DNA from: an archaeon
Lineage (GTDB): Archaea > Nanobdellota > Nanobdellia > SCGC-AAA011-G17 > GW2011-AR17
Direction: 5' to 3'
DNA length: 64,000 bases
Assembly (NCBI GenBank): GCA_043825775.1
Contig: JBDRRK010000012.1
Location: 129,237 to 193,236, forward strand
The first letter of the stretch is position 1. Each line of letters begins with the position of its first letter. Below, in pieces: positions 2,580 through 59,759 of the stretch. Made by a program: the position numbers and the translations under genes. The notes under the pieces were generated by a model. It saw only the letters and a program-made list of their open reading frames with translations, was not told the DNA's origin and made no database searches.

Positions 2580-2884
2580 TTTCTTGTGATCTTGAATTCT
2601 TTTTTTTGTGGTGTCATCATTTGAAGTAATTTTTTATATTCTTCATCATTAATGTGTGTTAGTTTTTCTTTTTGCGATGTTTGGAAAATTATTAACAATG
2701 ATTGCAATGCTTTTTCAGGATGTGCTGTTTTCAGGTTATTGTACCGGCTGATTGCTTGTTGGCTCATCAGTTGCTTTACTTGCAGTTCCAGTTGGTTTAT
2801 TTGTTGCTGGAGCTGTAGTTGCTCTTGTAATTCCTGGTTTTGCATCTCCTGAAGCTTCCTTTGTTTTATTTCCTCCAGTTCCAT
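2576..2884 (-). CDS. PDCD5/TFAR19-like dsDNA-binding protein
   Basis: Q/E-rich coiled N-terminus (MELEEIKQRKLQEMQNQELQEQ...) followed by a basic region, as in archaeal PDCD5-like proteins usually encoded beside rps19e/rpl39e. Start overlaps the S19e tail by 149 nt out of frame. Confidence 0.6.
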   Translation of the reverse strand: MELEEIKQRKLQEMQNQELQEQLQLQQQINQLELQVKQLMSQQAISRYNNLKTAHPEKALQSLLIIFQTSQKEKLTHINDEEYKKLLQMMTPQKKEFKITRK

Positions 2885-3302
2885 CTTTCTTCCTAATTAC
2901 TGTATCTAAAAATGATCTTCCTTTAGGAGTTAAAATTTTTCCTTTATGTACTCCCTTTTCAACTTGTTTGATTAATCCTTCTGCTTCTAATTGTTGTAGG
3001 ATTGTTCTAATAACTTTACCAGATGCTTTGTAAAACTTTCCTGGTTTTACTCCTCTGTTTTTTTTAGTTCCATAGAAGTTTCTTAGTTTTGATACTCCAA
3101 TAGGACCTCTTGTGTAAATCTTCCTTAGAATAGAGCCTGCTCTAACATACCACCAGTTTGCATCATCTGGGGTTCTTTCTTTGCCTGCACCTGTCTTGAT
3201 ATAAGAAGCCCACTCTGGTTTTTGGACGTTTTTTGTTTTTTTAAGCTCAATTGCAGCTTTATTTATCAAATCAGTAGGATTTATGTCATATGCAGTTGCC
3301 AT
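2736..3302 (-). CDS. rps19e: 30S ribosomal protein S19e with a low-complexity C-terminal tail
   Basis: MATAYDINPTDLINKAAIELKK...PEWASYIKTGAGKERTPDDANWWYVRAGSILRKIY...GRSFLD matches S19e. The last ~45 aa are a T/A/K/P-rich tail overlapping the next gene. Confidence 0.8.
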   Translation of the reverse strand: MATAYDINPTDLINKAAIELKKTKNVQKPEWASYIKTGAGKERTPDDANWWYVRAGSILRKIYTRGPIGVSKLRNFYGTKKNRGVKPGKFYKASGKVIRTILQQLEAEGLIKQVEKGVHKGKILTPKGRSFLDTVIRKKDGTGGNKTKEASGDAKPGITRATTAPATNKPTGTASKATDEPTSNQPVQ

Positions 3303-3384
3303 CTTTGTTTTTTACCTTTATTTTTAGTTTTAATATAATTTTATGATAATCAGTAGAAAAATAGGGGGCTTATATAGTTTTCTG

Positions 3385-3630
3385 TTAAGGATATATAGGA
3401 TTGGTACTTATTATTACCTCTTGATTAGCTCTATGATGATAGTAACCATAGGATATTGAGAGTAAGTTTTTCTGTCCTTGTTCTTTCCAGACTATTGTGT
3501 TTGAATCCCTGTACACAACTTCTGAATTATCTGTAAAACCTAATGCTCTTGCAAATCTTTCTGATAAAACTTCTAATGGTTCTGTACTTGTCATTAAGGC
3601 TTGCCAATGTTCCCTATGAATATCTGCCAT
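3385..3630 (-). CDS. hypothetical protein (81 aa)
   Basis: ORF only. Confidence 0.3.
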   Translation of the reverse strand: MADIHREHWQALMTSTEPLEVLSERFARALGFTDNSEVVYRDSNTIVWKEQGQKNLLSISYGYYHHRANQEVIISTNPIYP

Positions 3631-37932: not shown

Positions 37933-38634
37933 ATGTTAAACAAGATTTACTGCATGGACAACCTGAAGTACCTGAAGAAGGTAAAGGATAACTCAGTTGA
38001 CCTTGTTGTTATTGACCCACCGTACAATGTGAGCCAGAAGAACAACATAAAATACAAGGACATTAACATTGTCAAGAACTTTGGTTCATGGGATTATGGC
38101 TTTGATCCTGTTCCTGTTTTGAAAGAATTAAAAAGAGTGTTAAAACCCAATGGACAGATTTATATCTTCTGTGCTACCAAACAGATTCCAATTTATATGA
38201 ATATACTTGAAGAAGAATGGTTTTTTAGGAATTTATTAGTTTGGTACAAGACAAATCCTGCTCCTAGGATGAGTAAGACTAACTTTGTGTTTGCAAATGA
38301 ATATATTCTTTATGCTATAAATGAAAAGGTTAAACCCAGTTCTGCTACTTTTAATTTTTTGGGACAGTCTTCTATGCATAACACAATCATTACTTCGGCT
38401 TTGCAAGGGAAAGAGAGATTAAAGAAAGATGGGAAGGCACTTCATCCAACCCAAAAGCCACTTTCTGTATTGAAGAAGTTGATTTCTGTATCAAGTAATG
38501 AAGATGATGTTGTGTTGGATGTGTTTATGGGTGTTGGTTCAACTGCAGTTGCTTGTAAAGAGCTAGGTAGAAACTTTATGGGCTGTGAGTTAGATAAGGA
38601 GTATGTTAGGGAGGGGAGGAAGAGATTAGACTAA
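37933..38634 (+). CDS. DNA methyltransferase (N6-adenine/N4-cytosine, beta-class; solitary)
   Basis: Motif IV VVIDPPYNV comes before motif I DVFMGVGSTAVA, as in the ParB-/CcrM-like MTase family. No adjacent endonuclease. Confidence 0.75.
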   Translation: MLNKIYCMDNLKYLKKVKDNSVDLVVIDPPYNVSQKNNIKYKDINIVKNFGSWDYGFDPVPVLKELKRVLKPNGQIYIFCATKQIPIYMNILEEEWFFRNLLVWYKTNPAPRMSKTNFVFANEYILYAINEKVKPSSATFNFLGQSSMHNTIITSALQGKERLKKDGKALHPTQKPLSVLKKLISVSSNEDDVVLDVFMGVGSTAVACKELGRNFMGCELDKEYVREGRKRLD

Positions 38635-38967
38635 TCCTGCTGATGCTCCCCAAACTATAACGCCTGCCGTAACAACTGATGAAACAATTCTTCCTATATG
38701 ATAAAAAGATTCTACCATTTTAAATTTTATTACATAAGAAGCTAAACCAATAAATCCTAAAACTGTTGCAATATTTATATACAAAACAACTAAAAAAGGA
38801 ATGCTTTGAAATATAGAAAAAAATGAAACTAATGCAATTGCATTTGCAAACATTGTTATCCTTCCAGTATAATATTTCTCAACAAGAAACCCAATAACCA
38901 TTAAAGATAAAGGGGCTAATAGATATAGCAATGTTTTGGGGAGTAGTTGTATCAGCCAAATTTCCAT
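38626..38967 (-). CDS. small membrane protein (3-4 TM)
   Basis: Hydrophobic profile. Confidence 0.35.
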   Translation of the reverse strand: MEIWLIQLLPKTLLYLLAPLSLMVIGFLVEKYYTGRITMFANAIALVSFFSIFQSIPFLVVLYINIATVLGFIGLASYVIKFKMVESFYHIGRIVSSVVTAGVIVWGASAGLV

Positions 38968-38973
38968 TCTAAA

Positions 38974-39279
38974 TTAAAACTCAGGTAAATCTCCTAAGTT
39001 ATCTTCCTCCTTGTTATTGCCTTCTGTTTTGATATACTCCTTGTCCCTTACCACAAAAATTTCTACCTTGTCTCCTTTCTTTAACTTACCCTCTTTGTTT
39101 TTATATGCAGTAATAATCTTCTTATAAGATTTAAGAAAACGAACAATATCTTCTCTCGGAAGCCTTCTCAAATTTGAAACATTAGTTCCAGTATCATCAT
39201 ATATTTCAACTTTGTTGATATGTCTCGGTTCTTTGTTGTAGTTTACCCCTACAATTATATAATCTGCCCATTTTTCCAT
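38974..39279 (-). CDS. DUF3892-like small protein (tentative)
   Basis: MEKWADYIIVGVNYNKEPRHINKVEIYDD ... pattern recalled for DUF3892. Confidence 0.35.
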   Translation of the reverse strand: MEKWADYIIVGVNYNKEPRHINKVEIYDDTGTNVSNLRRLPREDIVRFLKSYKKIITAYKNKEGKLKKGDKVEIFVVRDKEYIKTEGNNKEEDNLGDLPEF

Positions 39280-39283
39280 TTTA

Positions 39284-39568
39284 TTACCTACCTTTGTTTT
39301 TATAACCTTTTTTCCTTAGCCTTTCATTCACAGACCCATGTTTGTTAGACATTTTTCCTATTTCTCTTCCATATTTGTCTTTGCCTGTTCTTTTCCAATC
39401 TACAAACTGATTTGTTTTACCAGTCATCCCAGCTGCACTTTTTTTGGCAGTTGGTCCACCAAATTGGTATAATTCTGGAGCCCTCACATTATCTAAACGA
39501 AATCTAGTTCCATTTGCAAAAATGCCTGAATCTCCGTCATGCCATTCTTTTACTCTACGCTTTACCAT
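39284..39568 (-). CDS. short staphylococcal-nuclease (SNase)-like protein
   Basis: DGDSGIF...FRLDNVRAPE...DKYGREI resembles the SNase DGDT / RL.GIDAPE / YGR motifs. Confidence 0.45.
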   Translation of the reverse strand: MVKRRVKEWHDGDSGIFANGTRFRLDNVRAPELYQFGGPTAKKSAAGMTGKTNQFVDWKRTGKDKYGREIGKMSNKHGSVNERLRKKGYKNKGR

Positions 39569-39741
39569 CGTAAAACCTCCTTAATTTTTATTAAAATAGA
39601 TTATATACTTATATTTAAATATTGTCCAAATTTTGGACAAAAATGATTTATTATACAAAAAATATTTATATAAGAAAACAATGTTTTCATTATGTGACAA
39701 CATACTTTTATAAACTTAAATTCCAATGGAGGTTAATATAA

Positions 39742-40425
39742 ATGGTAAAAAAATACAATTCTTTTAAAAAAGCTCTGCAAGGTCTTCATGGTTTAAGCGA
39801 TGAAGAGGCTGATGCTTTTTTTCTTTTGTGCAATAACAAAATTTTCTGTGTTAATGATGTAAAAAAGATTTTAGTTGATATAAAAGCTCATAAAAAAAGC
39901 AGATCCACAGCATATAATTTAGTAGAAAAATTCGTAAAAGTGGGATTAATAACGCAAGTAAACAATGGTAGCAAAAAACAAGAATATGAATGTGTGCATC
40001 CAAGGGCAATATATAATGAACTTAAAATCCAGTTAACTCATGCTGAAAAAGAATTGCCTGAATTAGAAACTTCTTATGAAACTTCAGATTTTAAATCCCA
40101 AGATCCAAGAGAAAAATCTAAAATATTAAAATCAGAAAATGAAATATATTCAATATGTTATTCTTTAAGAGATTGTAAAATAGATATTGTTCATGATGGA
40201 AGCCCAATTATGACAGATTTTTTGGAAAGAATCAAAGATTGTGGATGTGTAAAGAAAGGAGCTACAAATGTTATTATATTTAAAAATGATGAAAAAGGAG
40301 ACAACTGCGGAGTTATAGAATTGTTAAAAAGAACCGAAAAGGGTGCTAAGGTAAGATTGTATGGTTATTTGTTGTATGATGAAGAAAAGTATAATTATTT
40401 TAAAAAAAAGGAGGTGAAAAAATGA
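39742..40425 (+). CDS. HTH-containing protein (putative toxin/partner of the Panacea protein)
   Basis: Winged-helix-like STAYNLVEKFVKVGLI, then a Cys-containing C-terminal domain. Overlaps the next gene by 4 nt. Confidence 0.4.
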   Translation: MVKKYNSFKKALQGLHGLSDEEADAFFLLCNNKIFCVNDVKKILVDIKAHKKSRSTAYNLVEKFVKVGLITQVNNGSKKQEYECVHPRAIYNELKIQLTHAEKELPELETSYETSDFKSQDPREKSKILKSENEIYSICYSLRDCKIDIVHDGSPIMTDFLERIKDCGCVKKGATNVIIFKNDEKGDNCGVIELLKRTEKGAKVRLYGYLLYDEEKYNYFKKKEVKK

Positions 40426-40856
40426 ATGAGCAAAAAGAAATTATGCTTTCTGTAATTTATTTGCTCGAAAAAGTATGGGGGAGGACATATTTACAAAAAT
40501 TTTTTTATTTATTAAACCGTGAAGTGTTTAAAGGTCATCTTTTTAGTTATGACCTATATAAATATGGGCCTTTCTCTGAACAAATAAATACACAACTTAC
40601 AGAATTGGAAATTGAAGGTCTTGTTGAAGAAAAAGCTCTTTTGACCAAAGGATTGCATACAGCTTATACATATAAATTAACAAAAAAAGGTCAAAAATAT
40701 GCCAGCAACATTTTCATAAAACTACCAAATAAAACAAGAGATGAACTAGTGAATTATACAAATAAATTCAAACAGTATTCACCAACAGAACTATTAAGAT
40801 TTGTCTATGAAAAATACCCTGAAGTCACAAAGAATAGCATCTACAATAAAGAATAG
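40422..40856 (+). CDS. Panacea (DUF4065/SocA-like) domain protein, putative antitoxin
   Basis: LQKFFYLLNREVF ... YKYGPFSE matches the Panacea signature (KLqKLlY ... YGP). Paralogous to 55024-55599. Confidence 0.5.
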   Translation: MNEQKEIMLSVIYLLEKVWGRTYLQKFFYLLNREVFKGHLFSYDLYKYGPFSEQINTQLTELEIEGLVEEKALLTKGLHTAYTYKLTKKGQKYASNIFIKLPNKTRDELVNYTNKFKQYSPTELLRFVYEKYPEVTKNSIYNKE

Positions 40857-40959
40857 TGGCTGAGATATAACTTTTACTTAATAGCAACTTTTATAAATGT
40901 ATCTATCTTGTATCTAAATTGTGGCTAAGAATATATATCTATGTAGCTAAAAAGGAGGT

Positions 40960-41220
40960 ATGGAAAAAGAGATGGTCAATGCTATTTCATTGCTAAAATC
41001 AAGTAAATATAGATTTAAGATTACTAAAGCAATAGATAATAATACTCTTACTCCTTCTGAAATAGCAAATAAAACCCAAATAAGACTTAATCACGTAAGT
41101 ATGTTCTTGAGAGAACTAAAAGACAATAAATTAGTTAAATGCCTAAATGAAAAAAGTAGAAAAGGAAGGCTATATGAATTAACAGAACTAGGTAAAAATG
41201 CAATCAAAAAACTCAATTAA
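40960..41220 (+). CDS. small winged-HTH regulator, controller (C-protein)-like, of the restriction-modification system
   Basis: 86-aa HTH protein (LTPSEIANKTQIRLNHVSMFLRELKDNKLV) immediately upstream of and overlapping the MTase gene. Confidence 0.5.
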   Translation: MEKEMVNAISLLKSSKYRFKITKAIDNNTLTPSEIANKTQIRLNHVSMFLRELKDNKLVKCLNEKSRKGRLYELTELGKNAIKKLN

Positions 41221-42478
41221 ATTCAAAGATGAATCTTGGGACTTTAGAAAAGGTGATACCAAATACAGTAATCATGGTATTCATACTTATCCTGCTATGA
41301 TGATACCCCAAATAGCTAGAAGATTAATTGAAATGTATGGAAAAGGTTCAAAAGTAATTTTAGATCCATTTATGGGTTCTGGAACCGCTTTACTCGAAGC
41401 TACATTGCATAATAATTTTATAAAAGCTTATGGTATTGATATTAACCCTCTTGCATTATTAATTGCAAAAGCTAAAACAACACCAATTGATCCAAATAAA
41501 CTTCTTGTAGAATATAACAGATTAATCGCAGATAGTGTTAGTGAAAAAAAGAAAGTCATGTTTGAGGGAAAGAAAATTAACAAACCTAATTTTTTTAATA
41601 TTGATTTCTGGTTTAAACCTGATGTGATTACAGATTTAGCAATAATAAAAGATAGCATTAATAATATTTCTAATGAAACAACAAAAAACTTTTTCTTGGT
41701 GGCTTTTTCCGAAACTGTTAGAAATGTATCAAATACAAGAAATAGGGAATTCAAGCTTTATAGAATGAGTCCTGCAATGTTAGAAAAACATAATCCTGAT
41801 ACATTTAATGAATTCAAAGAAAGAGTCAGACTTAATTTAGCAAAGATGGATGAATTTACAAAAGAAGTAAATAAAAATTGTCAAGTAAATGTCCTTGATG
41901 AAGACACAAGAAACATCAAGTCAATAAAAGATCAAGAAGTGGATTTAATTGTTACTTCCCCACCTTATGGTGATAGTAGAACAACTGTGGCTTATGGCCA
42001 ATTTTCAAGGTTAGCTTTGCAATGGATTGGTTTTGATAAAAAAACAGTAATTGATATTGATAAAATTAGTTTGGGTGGGATTCCTACAAAAGAACTTCAA
42101 GTTAATCTAGAATCACCAACATTAAAAAAAATAATAGAAGAAATCGCAAAAGAAGATTCAAAAAGAGCAAAGGATGTCTTAAGTTTTTATGTTGATTTTG
42201 ATAAATGCATAAAAGAATTGCATAGAGTAACCAAAGATGGAGCTTATTTATGTTTTGTTGTGGGAAACAGGACAGTTAAAGGAATACAAATACCTACCGA
42301 TGATATAATTGTCGAGTTATTTAAGTCTAAAAATAATTATCAACATATTAATACCTTTATTAGGAATATTCCACATAAAAGAATGCCTAAGAAAAATAGC
42401 CCAACAAATAAGATTGGTAAACTTTCAAATACAATGAATGAAGAGTGGATTATTATTCTTCAAAAGAAAAAACATTAA
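41198..42478 (+). CDS. DNA methyltransferase (N4-C/N6-A family, alpha-type order I-TRD-IV)
   Basis: N-terminal HTYPAMMIPQIARRLIEMY ... DPFMGSGT (motif I) and VTSPPYG (motif IV) ~190 aa later. This is the PF01555-type MTase family to which M.MvaI and M.BcnI belong. Confidence 0.8.
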   Translation: MQSKNSIKFKDESWDFRKGDTKYSNHGIHTYPAMMIPQIARRLIEMYGKGSKVILDPFMGSGTALLEATLHNNFIKAYGIDINPLALLIAKAKTTPIDPNKLLVEYNRLIADSVSEKKKVMFEGKKINKPNFFNIDFWFKPDVITDLAIIKDSINNISNETTKNFFLVAFSETVRNVSNTRNREFKLYRMSPAMLEKHNPDTFNEFKERVRLNLAKMDEFTKEVNKNCQVNVLDEDTRNIKSIKDQEVDLIVTSPPYGDSRTTVAYGQFSRLALQWIGFDKKTVIDIDKISLGGIPTKELQVNLESPTLKKIIEEIAKEDSKRAKDVLSFYVDFDKCIKELHRVTKDGAYLCFVVGNRTVKGIQIPTDDIIVELFKSKNNYQHINTFIRNIPHKRMPKKNSPTNKIGKLSNTMNEEWIIILQKKKH

Positions 42479-43215
42479 AGAATAATTTCTTTCTTTTCAT
42501 AGAGTTTATCTAAATGATTTCTGGATAATCTAAATCCTGGACCATGATCTCTAACAAAGAAATTACCTTTTCCCTGAGTCCTTTCTCTAATATCCATTCT
42601 AAACTCCCAAACCATTAATCCTTCTTTTAATAAAAGTTCGAATGCTTTTTCTGTCATTTTTGTTAACAAAATAGCGCTAGAATAATTAAAATATTCGCCA
42701 TCTTTTTCCATCTTCCTAAATGCCAATACCATTAACAGGTTTTCATGTAACTTCTTCTTTAAAATAGCCATTAATTCTTCAATCTTGAAAAAAGAAACTA
42801 CTCCACCTTCTTTGTGAACAATATTCAATTTGTTATTTTCCTCATCTAATTCTAGTTTAAACCCTTGCTCATTAAATCCATCTACTTTTAGAGTTGTCTT
42901 TAATGCTTTTCTTCCTTTAATGTCTTTATAACCATATTTTTCTATTATTTGCTTTGCACTTAATGGAGACCAATGAGGAACTTTTGTAAACAAAGTAACT
43001 CTAGAAGAAGCATCAATCCTTTGTGCTTTTAATTCTACAGGTATACCATTATATGAAAGATCAGGCTCTCCAAGATTATTTTCTTTAATTCCTAGCATAG
43101 TTTCAAGAGTATATCCTATTCCAGTGTTATCTTTTCTTAAAGATTTAACAAACCCTTTATCTTTTAGTTCTTTTAACTTCTCTTTTATATCAATTTCAAT
43201 TAATCCTTCTGCCAT
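42475..43215 (-). CDS. type II restriction endonuclease, MvaI/BcnI-like (tentative)
   Basis: Convergent with the MTase and overlapping it by 4 nt. GIGYTLETMLGIKENNLGEPDL...IPVELKAQR resembles the MvaI_BcnI family N-terminal motif. Confidence 0.45.
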   Translation of the reverse strand: MAEGLIEIDIKEKLKELKDKGFVKSLRKDNTGIGYTLETMLGIKENNLGEPDLSYNGIPVELKAQRIDASSRVTLFTKVPHWSPLSAKQIIEKYGYKDIKGRKALKTTLKVDGFNEQGFKLELDEENNKLNIVHKEGGVVSFFKIEELMAILKKKLHENLLMVLAFRKMEKDGEYFNYSSAILLTKMTEKAFELLLKEGLMVWEFRMDIRERTQGKGNFFVRDHGPGFRLSRNHLDKLYEKKEIIL

Positions 43216-51741: not shown

Positions 51742-52257
51742 ATGGAAGACTTACACAAAAGGTGGCCTCACAGGTGGCTTACACCAAAAGCAAAACCGGG
51801 AGAATCTACAATACACAGATATGGAATCTTTGCAAATGAAGATATCAAAAAAGGTGAGCCAATTAATGTGTTTGGTGGGCTAGCTGTTCCTAAAACTGAG
51901 ATAGAAGAATACAGAAAAATAATTAGTCATGCAGGAATACAAGTTAGTGATGATTTCTTTATTGTTCCAGCAAGTAATGATGAAATAGTTGAACAGGGAA
52001 TTTTTAATCATTCATGCGAGCCAAATGTAGGTTTTAATTCTAGCGTGACTATGACTGCAATAAGAAATATAAAAGCAGGAGAAGAATTACTTATGAATTA
52101 CGCTTTTATGGAAAGCTTTTTTGATTCATTCGAATGTAACTGTGGTTCTCCAAAATGCAGAAAAGTCATTGATAATAATACTTGGAAAGATAAAGAATTT
52201 CAAGAAAAATACCTTGAATATTACTCTCCATATTTGAAAGAAAAAATTAGGGTTTAG
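51742..52257 (+). CDS. SET-domain protein (protein lysine methyltransferase-like)
   Basis: NHSCEPN and ELLMNY motifs, followed by the Cys-rich post-SET CNCGSPKCRK. Confidence 0.7.
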   Translation: MEDLHKRWPHRWLTPKAKPGESTIHRYGIFANEDIKKGEPINVFGGLAVPKTEIEEYRKIISHAGIQVSDDFFIVPASNDEIVEQGIFNHSCEPNVGFNSSVTMTAIRNIKAGEELLMNYAFMESFFDSFECNCGSPKCRKVIDNNTWKDKEFQEKYLEYYSPYLKEKIRV

Positions 52258-53030: not shown

Positions 53031-53573
53031 TTATTCTAAGCTATGTATCCTCTTCAAAGCCTCATACTCCTTTCTGCACATCCCTTTAGCCTCAGGAAGT
53101 AATATCTTATCCCAATCCTTCTCCATCTTCTTCAAATTACCTTCGCATATACTCTTAATATCTCTATCTGGATTCTCCCAAAAGAAAATCTCAAAAAATG
53201 GACTCAAAAAGTGTGAAACAGCATCAGCAGAAGCAATTAATTTAACCTCTATCCTATCTTCAGGACTAGGTTTATTATGTTTAAATACACATTCAACAAT
53301 TAAATCCTTATGTGAATAATCCCTTAACATTTCAGAAACAATCTCTGCTCCTGTTTCAGCATGATTATCCAAACCTCTAATCTTTCCAATGTCATGAAGA
53401 TAAACAATCATCTCAATTAATTCCAAATCCAAATAATACTTTTTAGCCAACTCCAAAGCAATCTCTTTCATAGGAACAATATGATAATCCCAATACCAAG
53501 AACTATGCTTAAAATTACTATCAGAACATTCCTTTTTCACTCTTTCCTTAATTTCTTCCAACATTCTAAGCAA
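53031..53573 (-). CDS. HD-domain phosphohydrolase
   Basis: YLHDIGK HD motif. Confidence 0.65.
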   Translation of the reverse strand: MLRMLEEIKERVKKECSDSNFKHSSWYWDYHIVPMKEIALELAKKYYLDLELIEMIVYLHDIGKIRGLDNHAETGAEIVSEMLRDYSHKDLIVECVFKHNKPSPEDRIEVKLIASADAVSHFLSPFFEIFFWENPDRDIKSICEGNLKKMEKDWDKILLPEAKGMCRKEYEALKRIHSLE

Positions 53574-54867: not shown

Positions 54868-55023
54868 AATAGGAGAAATGTAAACATGATTTAAATAATG
54901 GCTTGAGTCGATTTTTTTACAATTGAAGTGTTTTTAGAGGAAAATAAGGTAATTGTAAAAGGGATTTATAAAAGACTGTGACATGGCATTTGTACGCAAC
55001 CTTTAAAACTAAATAAGTCTATC

Positions 55024-55599
55024 ATGGTTTATATGGAGGAAGATCAAATTTTGGAAAATATGTCGGAGTTACAGAAATATATAGTTCTACTCCTAAAAGC
55101 AAATAATAGAGAACTTATTAAAGGTAACACTTGGTTTCAAAAAGAACTTTTTCTTATTTCTAAAAATATTCCTTCCGTAGCTGAAGAAGCCTCTTTTGAA
55201 GCAGATATGTATGGTCCTTTTAGTGAAACTGCTGAAGAAGAACTTGAAGAACTTGGAATGGATGATGTTGTTTTAAAATCTGGAAATAAAGTTTTTTTAT
55301 CAAGTTTAGGAGATAAAATTGCTGCTAAAATAAAATCAAATATATCTAAAGAAGAATTCGAAATGATTTCAGAATTTAAGACCTTATTAAATGATTTGAA
55401 TCCTGAAGAAGTATTGACTTTAATTTATTTTACTTTTCCTAATATGACTCAAGAGTCTTTAGTTTTGGACAATATCAAGAAGCATAGAAAAAAAATAGCT
55501 ATAGAGTTATACAAAAAAGGAAAAATTAGTCTTCAAAGGGCATCTGAAATTGCAGATTTGCCTTTAGAAATTTTTGTTGAGGAGATTAAAAACATATGA
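55024..55599 (+). CDS. Panacea (DUF4065/SocA-like) domain protein, putative antitoxin
   Basis: LQKYIVLLLKANNREL ... DMYGPFSE, paralogous to 40422-40856. Confidence 0.5.
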   Translation: MVYMEEDQILENMSELQKYIVLLLKANNRELIKGNTWFQKELFLISKNIPSVAEEASFEADMYGPFSETAEEELEELGMDDVVLKSGNKVFLSSLGDKIAAKIKSNISKEEFEMISEFKTLLNDLNPEEVLTLIYFTFPNMTQESLVLDNIKKHRKKIAIELYKKGKISLQRASEIADLPLEIFVEEIKNI

Positions 55600-56090
55600 A
55601 AATTACTGATTCTTCTTGCTTAATCTGTATATTTGTAGAGATTGAAAAACCATTTATTCTGCTTAATTGGATAAAAAGAGGATATAAAATTGTTATTCCT
55701 CATCAAATATTTAAAGAATTACAAAAAAATAAAAAAACTTTTGAGAAAGTTAAACCAAAAATAAATGAAGGATTAATTACACTACAAAAATTAATAAATG
55801 AAGAAGATATTATAAAATTTAGAAATAGACATCCTCAACTTGGAAAAGGAGAAATATCTGTTATATTAACAGCTATAATGTTAAATAAACAAAAAAAGAG
55901 ATATTATGCAGTAATAGATGATAAAAATGCGAGAAAGATAGCTCAAAAATATAATATTCAACTCACAGGAACATATGGTTTGTTGAAGACATTAAATGAT
56001 AAAAAAGTTATTTCAAAAAAAGAGTTCACTGATTGTAAAAAAGCGATGCAAGATTCAAAATTTAGGATAAATTTTGATAAAATAAAATGA
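55596..56090 (+). CDS. PIN-like nuclease domain protein (putative toxin)
   Basis: KITDSSCLICIF (D5), KELQ (E41) and AVIDDKNARKIA (D108/109) follow the spacing of PIN catalytic acidics. The ATGA overlaps both neighbours. Confidence 0.4.
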   Translation: MKITDSSCLICIFVEIEKPFILLNWIKRGYKIVIPHQIFKELQKNKKTFEKVKPKINEGLITLQKLINEEDIIKFRNRHPQLGKGEISVILTAIMLNKQKKRYYAVIDDKNARKIAQKYNIQLTGTYGLLKTLNDKKVISKKEFTDCKKAMQDSKFRINFDKIK

Positions 56091-57229
56091 GTATTGAAAC
56101 AAATATTAAGCTTTTGAATGAAGATACAGAACATCTTTATAGAGTTCAAAAGATTAAGTTTTCTTCAAGTAAACACATAACTACTCCAACTAAAACTATT
56201 CCTTTAGATAGGTTAAGATTAAAAGACTCATTGAATACAAAATCAAGGCAACTTAATGAAATTTTTAAAAGATTTACATCAGAAAAAATAAAAGAAGCCA
56301 ATGAAGACAATGATAAATTTACTAAAATTGAATCTGAATTTAATTCAAATATGAATAAAGTACAAGAAAATGATTCAACATTTTGTTTTTTGGATTTTGC
56401 TGAAAATATATTTCCTACCTCTGAAGAAATTGAATTTATGATAGATATTGCTTATTGTAATTCTGATATTACAACAATTCCAACCATAAGTCAAATTAAA
56501 ATAAAAGAAGAAAATTTTAGTGATTTTTTAAATTATCTTAATAATGCTATTGAAACAATTGAACAACTTAATAATAAACCAATAATGGGGATGATTCCTT
56601 CTGTGGCTCCTAAAAAAGTTGAAGATTTATTAAATCTTTATGAAGAAAAAGGGATAAATTCATTTCTTTTAGACTTAGATGGAAAAAACCCTATAACTGC
56701 AAGAATGAGAATTTTTAGAATTTTAAAAATATTAAATAAGAAAAAACTGCTTGATTCTTCTTATATTCATGGACATAATGTTGGAATGAGAGTAGCAAAA
56801 ATAGTAGATGTAATTCCTGCAAAAGATATTTTAGGATTTGGTTTAGGTTTAAACTCCTTAGGAGAAAAACGTAAAATATTTCATCCAAATAAAGCTTTTT
56901 TAAATTATATAAAAACAAATCCTGAAAATAAATTTAGATTATTTAATAAAGAGGATTATGGATATTGGAAAGGATTAGCTTCAAAAGAATTAGATAAAAT
57001 TTGGCCAGAAGATAGTAGCTTTGAGACTATTTCATTTAAAGAAGCAAAAACATCTGGTTATTTACAAAAAGCATTTAATGTTGAACAATTAGCTTTAGCA
57101 TCACATAAATTAAGAGAAATTGTAAACGAAGAACCCAATAAAACATTGGATTTTATCAAAAATAAAAAGTATGTTAAAAAAGAAGATATAAAAATTATTG
57201 AAAATGTAAAGAAAAAAATTGCTAAATAA
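56087..57229 (+). CDS. hypothetical 380-aa protein, third gene of the Panacea-PIN operon
   Basis: ORF only. Confidence 0.4.
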   Translation: MSIETNIKLLNEDTEHLYRVQKIKFSSSKHITTPTKTIPLDRLRLKDSLNTKSRQLNEIFKRFTSEKIKEANEDNDKFTKIESEFNSNMNKVQENDSTFCFLDFAENIFPTSEEIEFMIDIAYCNSDITTIPTISQIKIKEENFSDFLNYLNNAIETIEQLNNKPIMGMIPSVAPKKVEDLLNLYEEKGINSFLLDLDGKNPITARMRIFRILKILNKKKLLDSSYIHGHNVGMRVAKIVDVIPAKDILGFGLGLNSLGEKRKIFHPNKAFLNYIKTNPENKFRLFNKEDYGYWKGLASKELDKIWPEDSSFETISFKEAKTSGYLQKAFNVEQLALASHKLREIVNEEPNKTLDFIKNKKYVKKEDIKIIENVKKKIAK

Positions 57230-57278
57230 ATTCTTAACTTTTTCCACAAGCTTTAAAAACAACCATTTAAATCCAAAT

Positions 57279-57644
57279 GCTATGGAATTAGAAGTAAGAG
57301 TAACAAATTATGATGGAGATTTAGAAGAACTAGGTAAAGTTTATCAAGAAGTTACAGGAACACCTTATGAATCTAAATCTTTTGATGAAACTGATGGAAT
57401 AAGCTTCTTACTAAACAGAGGTGGCTCAGGATATTCCTTATCAGCAATAAGATGGACAATTGAGCCTAGCTACAACCTTGTTCTAACTGCTTTTGGAAAT
57501 GATGCTCAAGTTTCAAGGGAAGTGATTGATGAATTTGCACAAATAACAGGATTAAAACCAATGGAAGCTCCCGCATACTTAAGAGAACAATTAGAAAATC
57601 AAATGGCTAAATCTCAATTAGTTTTTGCATTATTAGATCTTTAA
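57279..57644 (+). CDS. hypothetical protein (start moved to MELEV of track ORF 57219..57644)
   Basis: ORF only. Confidence 0.3.
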   Translation, partial: AMELEVRVTNYDGDLEELGKVYQEVTGTPYESKSFDETDGISFLLNRGGSGYSLSAIRWTIEPSYNLVLTAFGNDAQVSREVIDEFAQITGLKPMEAPAYLREQLENQMAKSQLVFALLDL

Positions 57645-58627
57645 ATATCAAAAACTCCTGCAGGAACATAAGTTGTCTTATGATCCTTAACAACCCTTAA
57701 ATTCTCATAACTTTTTATTATATTACCAAATTCCTCTTTAAACTCAGATAAAACTTCCTGAAAATGAGTATTATTTTTAACATGCAAATCCACCATAAGG
57801 TTCCAATCCCCCACTGTATTAATAATAAATATTACATTTTTATGGGATTGTAATTTTTTTACAAACTTCATTTTCTCAGTTTCATTAATGCAATTCAATT
57901 CAAATAAAACAACATGCCATTCATAACCAAAAACAGAAGGATCAATTTTAATCTTAAATCCTTGTATCACTCCTTCTTTTTGTAGCATATTTAATTTCCT
58001 TGTGACTGTATCTTTAGCAATTTTAGTTTTTTTGGCTAATTCCAAAACACTCATTCTTGGATCAGTATCTAAAGTCTTCAAAAGCTTAACGTCCTTCTTG
58101 TCTAATTTAAACAATTCTTCATTTCCATAATAATCATCTTTTCTCAAATAACTTGAAGAATCAACAAGGTATTTATTCTTACATGAGATAGCAGACATAT
58201 CAATAATAAACTTCTTTTCTCTTATGTTTTCTCCGAACTTGCTGTAAATTCGATTCAAAGATTCATTAAATTGTAGAATATCTCTTGTGAAAATGGCTAT
58301 GACCAAATTCCATTTTCCTGTTGTGCTTGCAACCCAACCCACTGTATCCATATCCTTTAAAAAGTTAATAAGTTCCTCTTCCCTTTGCTTAGTCATGTTT
58401 TGTAATTGTAAGAACAGATCATAAAAACTATAACCTATCTTCTTCGTATCAATCATCATGAAGAAATGAGTTATTGCACCTGTTTTCATTAATCTTCTGA
58501 CCCTATATTTAACCATTTGTTTGGATAATTCTACCTTCTTGGCTATGTCTGCAAGGGACTGCCGTGCATCTAAGTCAAGTTCGTAAAGAATACGTTTATC
58601 TTTGAGATCAAGTGATGATGGAGGCAC
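57641..58627 (-). CDS. tandem Lrp/AsnC-type transcriptional regulator (two HTH + RAM-like modules)
   Basis: Two HTH_AsnC-like segments: LDLKDKRILYELDLDARQSLADIAKKVELSKQMVKYRVRRL and LDKKDVKLLKTLDTDPRMSVLELAKKTKIAKDTVTRKL. Confidence 0.6.
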   Translation of the reverse strand: MPPSSLDLKDKRILYELDLDARQSLADIAKKVELSKQMVKYRVRRLMKTGAITHFFMMIDTKKIGYSFYDLFLQLQNMTKQREEELINFLKDMDTVGWVASTTGKWNLVIAIFTRDILQFNESLNRIYSKFGENIREKKFIIDMSAISCKNKYLVDSSSYLRKDDYYGNEELFKLDKKDVKLLKTLDTDPRMSVLELAKKTKIAKDTVTRKLNMLQKEGVIQGFKIKIDPSVFGYEWHVVLFELNCINETEKMKFVKKLQSHKNVIFIINTVGDWNLMVDLHVKNNTHFQEVLSEFKEEFGNIIKSYENLRVVKDHKTTYVPAGVFDI

Positions 58628-58729: not shown

Positions 58730-58978
58730 ATGTTGGTCAGTCCAATCACAAACACTAACAAGATAATTAACGTGAACGGCAAGGTTTTCCACATTGAACG
58801 GAGAAGAAGAATTGACTTGAAAAAACCAATAAGAGACCTTTTTGACAATGAGAATTCTGAAGTTTACTACAAGATGGAAATATGTCTCAGTCCTGAAAAG
58901 ACAATAAAAAGAATAAGGGAACTGACGCAGAAAAGCATCATTCCTGTTATAATGTATTTCACGGTGAAAAATGAATAA
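58730..58978 (+). CDS. hypothetical small protein
   Basis: ORF only, G+C-richer like the following gene. Confidence 0.2.
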   Translation: MLVSPITNTNKIINVNGKVFHIERRRRIDLKKPIRDLFDNENSEVYYKMEICLSPEKTIKRIRELTQKSIIPVIMYFTVKNE

Positions 58979-59759
58979 ATGCCCAGAATGTCAAGGCGAA
59001 AGGTACTCAATTGATTCAAGAACAGGGGAATTTGTCTGCAGGAAATGTGGATTGGTTATTGAGGATTCCCCATTTGAAGTCCCTTATGTAAATGATGTTA
59101 TGAAGGAAAGGGCAGAAACCCCTTGCCTGTTAAAGGCAGGTGGGAAGGAAATAAGCGGGAAAGTGATCAGGAAGCACTGGATGAGATCAACAAAGGAGAA
59201 GAACATGAGAGACATGAAAGACAAACTGGATTTATTGAGCTCGCAGTTGAAACTCACTGAAAGGGCAAAGAAGGATGCATTCTTTTTCTTCAGGCAGGCA
59301 GTTGAATTGAAATTGAATGTGGGAAGGGGAAACATGAATTTATTGTGTGCATGCATCTATGCATCCTGTTTACTGCACAAGACTCCCAAGACATTTGACG
59401 AGATAAAGTTTTACACTGATATCAAAAAGAGAAAGCTGTTCAAGCCTTACATGATATTAAAGAAGAGATTAAATCTTGAAATGGAACAAGTGAATCCAGA
59501 GGATTTCATCCCGAGGTTCAGTTCAATTTTGAAATTGAAGCAGAGCACGATAACAAAAGCTTATGAGATATTGCATAAATTGGATGGTCATTATGTAATG
59601 TCGGGATGGCAGGCTCGAACAATTGCTTCGTGTGTCATTTACTTGGCCACTAAATTGAATAATGATTTCAGGCCTCAAAGAGAAGTTAGCAATGCAACTC
59701 ATGTGATTGAGACTACGTTGAGGAGAAGGTGCAGGGAGTTGAGTGTAATTATTAAGTAG
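58971..59759 (+). CDS. tfb: TFB (TFIIB-like) transcription factor paralog, short and compositionally atypical
   Basis: N-terminal zinc ribbon CPECQG...CRKCG followed by cyclin-fold repeats. 262 aa is shorter than typical TFB. Confidence 0.7.
   Translation: MNKCPECQGERYSIDSRTGEFVCRKCGLVIEDSPFEVPYVNDVMKERAETPCLLKAGGKEISGKVIRKHWMRSTKEKNMRDMKDKLDLLSSQLKLTERAKKDAFFFFRQAVELKLNVGRGNMNLLCACIYASCLLHKTPKTFDEIKFYTDIKKRKLFKPYMILKKRLNLEMEQVNPEDFIPRFSSILKLKQSTITKAYEILHKLDGHYVMSGWQARTIASCVIYLATKLNNDFRPQREVSNATHVIETTLRRRCRELSVIIK

Follow-up and report, generated by a model that had tools for sequence, protein, structure and literature searches.

Within a 64,000-nucleotide stretch of the archaeal contig JBDRRK010000012.1 (the window; all positions below count from its first letter), three tightly packed genes at 55024 to 57229 make up a candidate toxin-antitoxin-like cassette, in which a predicted antitoxin and a predicted PIN nuclease are accompanied by a large third gene. 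An earlier note on this DNA had described the three as a Panacea-domain protein, a PIN-like nuclease and a protein with no recognisable domain, and had raised a tripartite toxin-antitoxin or anti-phage system as an explanation. The features of the cassette, with lengths in amino acids (aa) and with structures modelled by AlphaFold2 (AF2), are:

55024..55599, plus strand: gene 1, predicted composite antitoxin/regulator (longest open reading frame (ORF), 191 aa; AF2 model)
55051..55473, plus strand: N-terminal Panacea/DarG-C-terminal-like helical and winged-helix domain of gene 1, residues ~10-150 (hhalign, NCBIfam, Foldseek)
55483..55590, plus strand: C-terminal UPF0175 (COG2886) helix-turn-helix (HTH) of gene 1, residues 154-189 (Pfam PF03683)
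55596..56090, plus strand: gene 2, COG2405/DUF3368 VapC-like PIN nuclease, putative toxin (164 aa; PADLOC PDC-S70)
56087..57229, plus strand: gene 3 (380 aa; AF2 model), predicted to found an uncharacterised TIM-barrel family
55000..57250, no strand: compositional island of low guanine-plus-cytosine (GC) content that coincides with genes 1-3 (GC profile)
54975..54983, plus strand: candidate operator/promoter element ACTGTGACA, a one-base variant of a motif of related cassettes
55002..55008, plus strand: TATA-like box TTTAAAA of the putative cassette promoter (read from the sequence)

ATGA start/stop overlaps, read in the sequence, join genes 1 and 2 at 55596 and genes 2 and 3 at 56087. These overlaps are not due to chance, because orthologous cassettes keep either 4-nucleotide (nt) overlaps or gaps of 0-20 nt. 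The proposal that the three genes are one coupled unit is borne out. The true start of gene 1 is probably ATG 55033 (residue M4), which would give a protein of 188 aa; this is the start assigned by NCBI (188 aa; locus tags ABIJ18_...), and most homologues start equivalently. GC content falls to 0.22-0.25 within the three-gene island, against 0.31-0.35 in both flanks, and the flanking genes are unrelated to the cassette (radical SAM/B12, HD and SET genes in one flank, Lrp/AsnC and TFIIB genes in the opposite one). An Rfam scan of the region matched no family and an intrinsic-terminator scan found none, while a sigma-70 promoter scan, irrelevant for an archaeon, returned matches at chance level. 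Direct or inverted repeats that would mark the insertion ends were sought in the flanks, which yielded only short AT-rich chance matches.

A three-gene unit conserved across archaea

Loci were fetched around gene 3 homologues from assemblies, GTDB species representatives and JGI metagenomes, and also around gene 1 homologues; they were scanned with local hidden Markov models of the three families, and 15 duplicates were removed. Gene 3 adjoins genes 1 and 2 in 64 of the 65 informative non-redundant loci, in three orientations, so the three-gene unit, whose conservation the earlier note had left to be checked, is extensively kept. The co-directional order gene 1 > gene 2 > gene 3 is found in 47 loci, from DPANN archaea (Woese-, Micr- and Nanoarchaeota), Methanosarcinales, Methanoperedens, Methanolobus and Nitrosopumilus/Thaumarchaeota. 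Fifteen loci, from Promethearchaeota/Asgard archaea and others, instead feature a gene 3 that is convergent to gene 2 < gene 1; gene 3 is only 24-27% identical in these, and one of them (L081) is a decayed copy. The pair is divergent from gene 3 in two loci, L074 and the Freyarchaeota locus L004. Five loci are cut by a contig end with gene 2 still adjoining gene 3, and nine lack a usable flank. Gene 1 adjoins gene 2 in the cassettes scanned, and each long gene 1 homologue that was checked either has a gene 3 nearby or is an orphan. A functional unit is strongly supported by a linkage that survives three gene orders and identities down to ~24-25%, and its survival through rearrangement points to function rather than inheritance alone. 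The idea that gene 3 is an unrelated hitch-hiker behind a two-gene toxin-antitoxin pair has nothing to recommend it beyond the lack of a recognisable domain in gene 3. It is scarcely credible beside 64 non-redundant triads in four archaeal groups and three gene orders with conserved start/stop overlaps, and this synteny analysis already refutes it.

One locus also carries a shorter relative of the pair. At L096:29-839 (also L095:623-1433), a PIN-like ORF is overlapped by one of ~112 aa whose match to the gene 1 model is confined to the UPF0175 part. This UPF0175-only/PIN-like pair lies ~1.4 kb upstream of gene 3, and the same locus has a long gene 1 and a gene 2 that are convergent with gene 3. 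L096 offers a useful natural contrast of the two-gene and three-gene forms.

The cassette is mobile, as seen from its low-GC island and from flanks that are unrelated in every genome. A pattern-based scan of GTDB species-representative genomes matched 22, all archaeal, which is a lower bound. Its flanks vary from genome to genome, and defence or mobile-element genes are frequent in them, e.g. HsdM/S of a type I restriction-modification system (L001), AbiEii (L004), DruA with a transposase (L006), GmrSD (L031) and an integrase (L029). Loci L002 and L030 share the same chromosomal site, with CNNM, pyridine-nucleotide oxidoreductase, rhomboid, HAD and Lon genes. The full triad is present in L002 (3947-6190); in L030 (3329-4100) an intact gene 1 is followed by a gene 2 remnant of ~35 codons ('DTSCLICVFGEIKRPFILMDWMGRGHRIVITR*'), gene 3 has been deleted entirely along with the remainder of gene 2, and the remnant runs straight into the shared CNNM gene. 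A decayed cassette on the Nitrosopumilus sp. chromosome OZ245003.1 (L024:1331-5156) likewise features an intact gene 1. Its gene 3 is split by a frameshift and its gene 2 is cut to 63 aa by an insertion of ~2.4 kb, which carries parts of insertion sequences (IS), an IS630-like DDE transposase (1587-2645) and an IS66-like fragment (2611-3501). In L032, gene 1 stands alone. Decay that spares gene 1 in L030, L024 and L032 is expected if gene 1 is an antidote. Moreover, no copies that keep gene 2 or gene 3 without gene 1 were seen among the loci examined, barring one distant gene 3 relative (L035/L036) that is considered below.

Domain composition of the three proteins

Sequence comparison identifies gene 2 as a COG2405/DUF3368 VapC-like PIN protein, the putative toxin. 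A PADLOC run on the region matched it to the candidate PDC-S70 models (4.6e-18, 2e-13 and 2e-13). In Pfam, PIN_8 and PIN_4 fall just below threshold (PIN_4 21.4 against 21.9 bits) and DUF3368 scores E 0.13. Across 20 orthologues, DUF3368 is matched in 10, PIN (PF01850) in five and PIN_4 in four, others matching PIN_8, PIN_6 or PIN_12, and DUF3368 also appears in the precomputed annotations of neighbours. The family profile recovers 2lcq, 'putative toxin VapC6', from the PDB (E 0.0018); single-sequence searches of the PDB with genes 1 and 2 returned noise only. The acidic residues that had been proposed near positions 5, 41 and 108 are D5, E41 and D108. The 18 closer orthologues share all three without exception, as they do G83, G85, E86, R113, G125 and G128, and D109 is conserved at 94%. 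In a wider set of 20 sequences, to which four more distant members were added and which includes Asgard-type copies, E41 alone is invariant and D5, E86, D108 and D109 are conserved at 90% or above. Because these acidic residues are conserved, the nuclease site looks intact, and the description of gene 2 as a PIN-type nuclease is upheld by the PDC-S70, 2lcq and residue evidence alike, its PIN fold being predicted from profile matches.

Gene 1 comprises two domains. Residues 154-189 match Pfam PF03683 (UPF0175) with 32.3 bits (cut-off 27.9) and E 7.9e-8, and the match recurs in 26 of 27 family members; this C-terminal HTH was absent from the earlier account. The AF2 model (pLDDT 92.6) places three short helices at 155-189. 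We found 55 homologues of gene 1, mostly 181-200 aa in length.

The N-terminal domain is more remote from described families. None of the 27 gene 1 family members matches Pfam SocA_Panacea (PF13274) at E<=1, and NCBIfam SocA_antitoxin is reached by the gene 1 protein of the window alone (E 0.03). The link to Panacea runs instead through a second protein of the window, the ORF at 40422. BLASTP aligns this ORF with gene 1 at E 3e-10 (24% identity over 126 residues), and hhalign aligns the two family profiles over 115 columns with a probability of 98.6% and E 9.5e-16. The 40422 protein itself has a weak PF13274 match (E 0.041), and 25 of 25 members of its family are matched by SocA_Panacea, with a best E of 2.2e-7. 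As it passes through the 40422 family without a direct Pfam match, the Panacea assignment of gene 1 is transitive. The claim that gene 1 is a Panacea protein thus stands as remote homology and fails as a direct match. Similarly, its claimed paralogy with 40422 stands as homology, and by these alignments the two are distant homologues, not recent paralogues.

A second resemblance is to DarG. In 17 of 25 gene 1 family members, NCBIfam antitoxin_DarG (NF048014) gives weak co-linear matches, with 13-19 bits against a 250-bit cut-off (E 2e-4 to 0.04), and these are confined to profile positions ~165-312 of 338, which we take to be the non-macrodomain, DarT-binding part of DarG. The gene 1 family shows no DarG-type N-terminal macrodomain. 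The best Foldseek match of the gene 1 model in the PDB is to chains B/D of 7yk3, a DarTG complex (187/188-aa chain; E 0.02), with a template modelling (TM) score of 0.45, followed by MarR-type winged helices; a gene 1 profile search of PDB sequences did not recover 7yk3. PADLOC matches gene 1 to PDC-M19A at 1e-9. Panacea is defined by a conserved central helix and a 'GPV' strand (PMC8832971). Three residue pairs are invariant in the gene 1 family, Q39-K40, G64-P65 and S67-E68, of which G64-P65 falls within a short strand (64-66) that follows the conserved helix 37-46 (QKELFL); where GPV has V, the gene 1 family has F, W, Y or D. We conclude that the N-terminal domain probably belongs to a wider Panacea/DarG-C-terminal class of toxin-binding antitoxin domains rather than to Panacea at the Pfam level, its likeness to the DarG C-terminal domain being about as good as that to Panacea.

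Upstream of gene 1, the element ACTGTGACA lies 18 nt before TTTAAAA, and TTTAAAA lies 25 nt before ATG 55033; a TATA-to-ATG distance of 25 nt would fit a leaderless or near-leaderless archaeal transcript. In the DPANN-type clade, gene 1 is preceded by CACTGGAC(A), in one case as a tandem duplicate, 14-16 nt before an ATTTAAA/ATATAA TATA-like box, and in the Methanosarcinales-type clade by ACTTTCAC. Of 55 non-redundant cassettes, 17 have a related motif ahead of gene 1, where the background rate of these loci would predict ~0.9; this enrichment is indicative only, because the pattern was defined after seeing the data. The motifs travel with the cassette into unrelated genomic flanks. The upstream motif is a plausible candidate operator for the UPF0175 HTH. 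The clade-specific motifs, CACTGGACA (in tandem in L040) or ACTTTCAC, closely precede a TATA-like box upstream of gene 1 in L002, L007, L030, L040, L041, L013, L016, L018, L029 and others.

Genes 1 and 2 together resemble a pair that is known as a prediction. The UPF0175/COG2886 HTH has been predicted as an antitoxin (Makarova 2009, PMC2701414) and is described as occurring 'exclusively in the context of COG2405' PIN proteins (Matelska 2017, PMC5499597). Since gene 1 ends in a UPF0175 HTH and gene 2 is a COG2405-type PIN, the two represent this predicted UPF0175-COG2405 pair. In PADLOC, the pair corresponds to PDC-S70, an archaeal-enriched candidate treated as a single gene (PMC12988326). The cassette shares with this system an upstream gene that ends in UPF0175, a downstream PIN with acidic residues, their adjacent, co-oriented and overlapping arrangement, and enrichment in archaea. 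The known form has two genes with a small COG2886 antitoxin, whereas the antitoxin here, at 188-191 aa, carries an extra 150-aa domain, and a 380-aa gene is linked in 64 of 65 loci. The three-component COG2405 systems described so far pair an HTH with a DUF955 protease (PMC5499597).

Gene 3 matched nothing in Pfam or NCBIfam and nothing meaningful in PADLOC, its profile returned only noise against PDB sequences, and Pfam on ten distant relatives was equally empty. The earlier statement that it lacks a recognisable sequence domain therefore holds, and the AF2 modelling then suggested gave a TIM barrel. The model is confident (pLDDT 91.7, pTM 0.91) and comprises an N-terminal antiparallel β-sheet, a (β/α)8-like barrel and a helical C-terminal domain whose tail is Lys-rich, with the barrel strands at approximately 56-63, 97-104, 129-133, 166-170, 192-196, 226-230, 242-244 and 283-297. 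We found 83 homologues of gene 3 at 90% clustering. A profile search yielded 585 representatives at 50% clustering (E<=1e-3), of which 187 reach <=1e-30, and full-length matches are mostly 340-430 aa. Judging from the model, gene 3 represents a new, uncharacterised TIM-barrel family of at least 585 clusters at 50% identity.

Structural comparison of gene 3 against the PDB with Foldseek retrieved generic TIM barrels only. The best E-values (7e-6, TM 0.34-0.39) belong to DRE-TIM metallolyases, i.e. carboxyltransferase domains, HOA aldolase and IPMS; class II aldolases, DHODH and the TGT-like CBASS protein Cap10 (9ntn_A; TM 0.37) are also among the matches. Against BFVD, the highest TM-scores, 0.52 and 0.46, came from an uncharacterised protein of Caudovirales and a phage 'tRNA guanine transglycosylase', respectively. 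Gene 3 shares with DRE-TIM and TGT-like barrels the (β/α)8 barrel followed by a C-terminal helical domain, and carboxylates at or near the strands; its N-terminal antiparallel sheet before the barrel recalls, in our view, that of TGT. It differs from them in its TM-scores of 0.33-0.52, the lack of any sequence match and a non-conserved second His of the HxH motif.

Residues conserved at 90% or above in 201 gene 3 sequences are T33, P34, E58, D127, P132, G168, P171, Y185, D196, N231, D247, G254, G259, F286, Y291, Y293, N331, E338 and K360. Within the model, E58, D127, D196, N231 and D247 lie at or near barrel strands, with D196 and N231 at C-terminal strand ends, where TIM-barrel active sites are usually found. 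A confident barrel with conserved carboxylates at or near its strands suggests that gene 3 is enzyme-like, with a predicted carboxylate-based site. No Cys or His is conserved at 85% or above among the 201 sequences, and a TGT-type zinc site is therefore impossible in gene 3. DRE-TIM metallolyases are characterised by a D-R-E signature and HxH metal ligands. We considered the 'HGHNVG' of gene 3 as such an HxH motif and rejected it, as the second His is not conserved: within the 'HGHN' stretch N231 alone is invariant, and H230 is F, I or L in most members; no D-R-E signature is evident in gene 3 either. The likeness of gene 3 to base-exchange enzymes of the TGT, DpdA or Cap10 kind is one of fold only, with no sequence match.

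These folds bear on whether the cassette might be a small housekeeping operon, in which an HTH regulator would control, for example, an RNA-processing PIN together with a TIM-barrel enzyme of metabolism or RNA modification. Most TIM barrels are metabolic enzymes, carboxyltransferases and aldolases give the best Foldseek E-values, and the immediate neighbours of the cassette in the window are ordinary genes. We nonetheless regard this explanation as very unlikely: the DRE-TIM and TGT active-site motifs are not conserved in gene 3, and the distribution is patchy (22 species-representative genomes, a lower bound). Moreover, the cassette forms a low-GC island, is polymorphic for presence or absence at a syntenic site, includes IS-disrupted and frameshifted copies, and has flanks that differ everywhere and often carry defence genes.

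A proposed role for the TIM-barrel gene

Taken together, these data lead us to favour, with moderate confidence, a horizontally mobile, archaea-specific tripartite toxin-antitoxin-like unit, a candidate abortive-infection cassette in which the TIM-barrel protein is an obligate co-effector. Concerning toxicity, binding partners, the substrate of gene 3, the trigger and an antiviral role, we infer the following course. In resting cells, gene 1 would bind and silence gene 2 and, directly or indirectly, gene 3, and as a probable autorepressor it would also repress the cassette promoter. Proteolysis, or a shut-off of host expression during infection, might then deplete gene 1; upon its loss the PIN would cleave RNA, the TIM-barrel enzyme would act, and growth would stop, possibly as abortive infection. 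Gene 3 would work only together with the pair, most likely as a co-effector or second effector whose substrate is a nucleic acid or nucleotide and whose activity gene 1 restrains.

Several observations weigh against this reading. The closest folds to gene 3 are metabolic TIM barrels, at low TM-scores (0.33-0.52). Defence genes are not among the immediate neighbours of the cassette in the window, and PDC-S70 is an unvalidated candidate. Gene 3 homologues were not found on PLSDB plasmids, GenBank phages or IMG/VR contigs. In Asgard-type loci, gene 3 is convergent and has its own promoter, which is unusual for a toxin whose antitoxin is on another transcript. Mirror-tree distance correlations among the gene 1 domains, gene 2 and gene 3 are all high (r 0.82-0.93), and the partial correlations, at 0.55 for N-domain and gene 2, 0.38 for gene 2 and gene 3 and 0.29 for N-domain and gene 3, do not single out the N-domain and gene 3, so that the N-domain may simply be the PIN-binding part. 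Finally, the sole informative exception to the linkage, L035 (= L036), encodes at 1051-2256 a distant gene 3 relative of 401 aa with no gene 1 or gene 2 nearby, and the TIM-barrel family therefore extends beyond the triad.

The contig of L035 encodes acidic, haloarchaeal-looking proteins, and next to the gene 3 relative lie an unrelated ORF of 151 aa and a membrane protein resembling TraB/PrgY. The convergent 151-aa ORF was considered as a divergent PIN and discarded, as it has no similarity to the PIN of L033.

The partial correlations also bear on an attractive, though doubtful, sharper form of the favoured reading: that gene 1 is a two-headed antitoxin, its UPF0175 domain neutralising the PIN and its Panacea/DarG-C-terminal-like domain neutralising the TIM barrel as an independent toxin ('PanT'). 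The cassette would then be a PanAT-like pair fused with a UPF0175-PIN pair. Direct binding lets Panacea domains neutralise a wide range of unrelated toxin folds (PMC8832971), which suits this sharper form, as does the constant co-occurrence of the extra 150-aa domain with gene 3. A UPF0175-only ORF (~112 aa) beside a PIN-like ORF in L096, ~1.4 kb from gene 3, and the joint loss of genes 2 and 3 from loci that retain gene 1 are consistent with it too. Set against these, the N-domain has a higher partial r with gene 2 than with gene 3 (0.55 > 0.29), none of the loci scanned holds a cassette with gene 3 and a Panacea-only partner without a PIN, and 15 loci have gene 3 on a transcript of its own, convergent to that of the pair.

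Comparison with PanAT systems is mixed. Common to both are a helical domain, profile homology to a PF13274-matching family, and the position of the antitoxin beside putative toxins; the invariant G-P in a small β-sheet of gene 1 (YGPxSE) recalls the GPV of PanA. The cassette departs from PanAT in lacking a direct PF13274 match and in fusing the domain to UPF0175, and PanAT third genes are sporadic, not obligate. The main text of the PanAT paper does not mention a barrel, VapC, UPF0175 or DUF3368 partner (PMC8832971).

Gene 3 might alternatively be a non-toxic accessory of an ordinary UPF0175-PIN pair: an enzymatic sensor or trigger, a protein that prepares or presents the RNA substrate of the PIN, or a separately encoded damage-reverser comparable to the DarG macrodomain. 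Third genes do go with some toxin-antitoxin pairs, namely mazG, chaperones and regulators (PMC8832971), gene 3 can have its own promoter and orientation, and gene 2-gene 3 distances are well correlated. The gene 1 N-domain, moreover, resembles the part of DarG that lies beside an enzymatic antitoxin domain. We consider an accessory role unlikely, as the third genes of that survey occur in only a minor share of genomes that carry the pair (PMC8832971) and gene 3 is linked here in 64 of 65 loci, the composite make-up of gene 1 is peculiar to cassettes with gene 3, and a harmless enzyme might sometimes survive alone, which gene 3 never does without genes 1 and 2 save in one very distant branch.

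The DarTG comparison underlying the damage-reverser option has its own limits. The gene 1 N-domain has its best Foldseek match in a chain of the DarTG complex, and as in DarTG an enzyme component would accompany a domain that is predicted here to bind toxin; the cassette has neither macrodomain nor DarT, the similarity is weak, and its enzyme would be a separate TIM-barrel gene. Known tripartite toxin-antitoxin systems (toxin-antitoxin-chaperone, paaR-paaA-parE, mazEFG) resemble the cassette in combining a pair with a conserved third gene. Their third component is a chaperone, a regulator or a nucleotide pyrophosphohydrolase and never a TIM barrel, and none of them pairs with a two-domain antitoxin of the gene 1 type. 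Within the searchable library, no paper describing a UPF0175/DUF3368/TIM-barrel triad was found. The earlier view of the arrangement as non-standard is thus sustained in that the triad was not found described, and needs revision in that its novelty is not 'Panacea + PIN'. New are the composite antitoxin, with its extra N-domain, and the obligatory TIM-barrel gene; the gene 1-gene 2 pair is known as a prediction.

Under the favoured reading, in which the TIM-barrel protein is a co-effector of the PIN, a bolder proposal may tentatively be added, which we hold to be improbable as it stands: that gene 3 founds a new TIM-barrel class of toxins or immune effectors, inhibited by the Panacea/DarG-C-terminal-like head of gene 1 while the other head controls the PIN RNase. 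Such an effector might, for example, catalyse TGT-like base exchange or glycosidic-bond chemistry, or a carboxylate/Mg-dependent phosphotransfer, with tRNA, DNA or nucleotides as the substrate. If true, this would be a 'one antidote, two poisons' archaeal defence module that extends from DPANN to Asgard archaea. 

One branch of the PDC-S70 candidate is not a single gene but a unit of three, in which the antitoxin is composite and a predicted enzyme is an obligatory member. In gene 1, two antitoxin-type domains are naturally fused, which is informative for partner recognition by Panacea-like domains. The cassette also offers targets for experiment, comprising a new TIM-barrel activity, predicted catalytic residues and a candidate operator motif.

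Neighbouring genes in the window

Upstream of the cassette lie a SET-domain protein (51742-52257) and an HD-domain protein (53031-53573). Immediately after gene 3, a 120-aa ORF (57282-57644) has no Pfam match; GC is back at host level here, and for this reason the ORF is probably outside the cassette. Directly downstream, a gene on the minus strand (57641-58627) encodes a 328-aa protein of two tandem Lrp/AsnC-type units (two HTH_24 and AsnC ligand-binding domains), and a TFIIB homologue follows at 58971-59759.

Further upstream in the window another two genes are coupled, those of a TrmB-like winged-helix protein of 227 aa (39742-40425) and of the 144-aa Panacea-family protein mentioned above (40422-40856), which share 4 nt. 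This pair could be PanAT-like, with the upstream protein as the 'toxin', or could comprise a regulator and an antitoxin. It is enclosed by a restriction-modification cluster at 37933-43215, a defence-type region 12-17 kb upstream of the cassette, the further members of which are:

37933-38634: N4/N6 DNA methylase
39284-39568: SNase-like ORF
40960-41220: small winged HTH protein, possibly a controller protein
41198-42478: second methylase
42475-43215, minus strand: MvaI/BcnI-family restriction endonuclease

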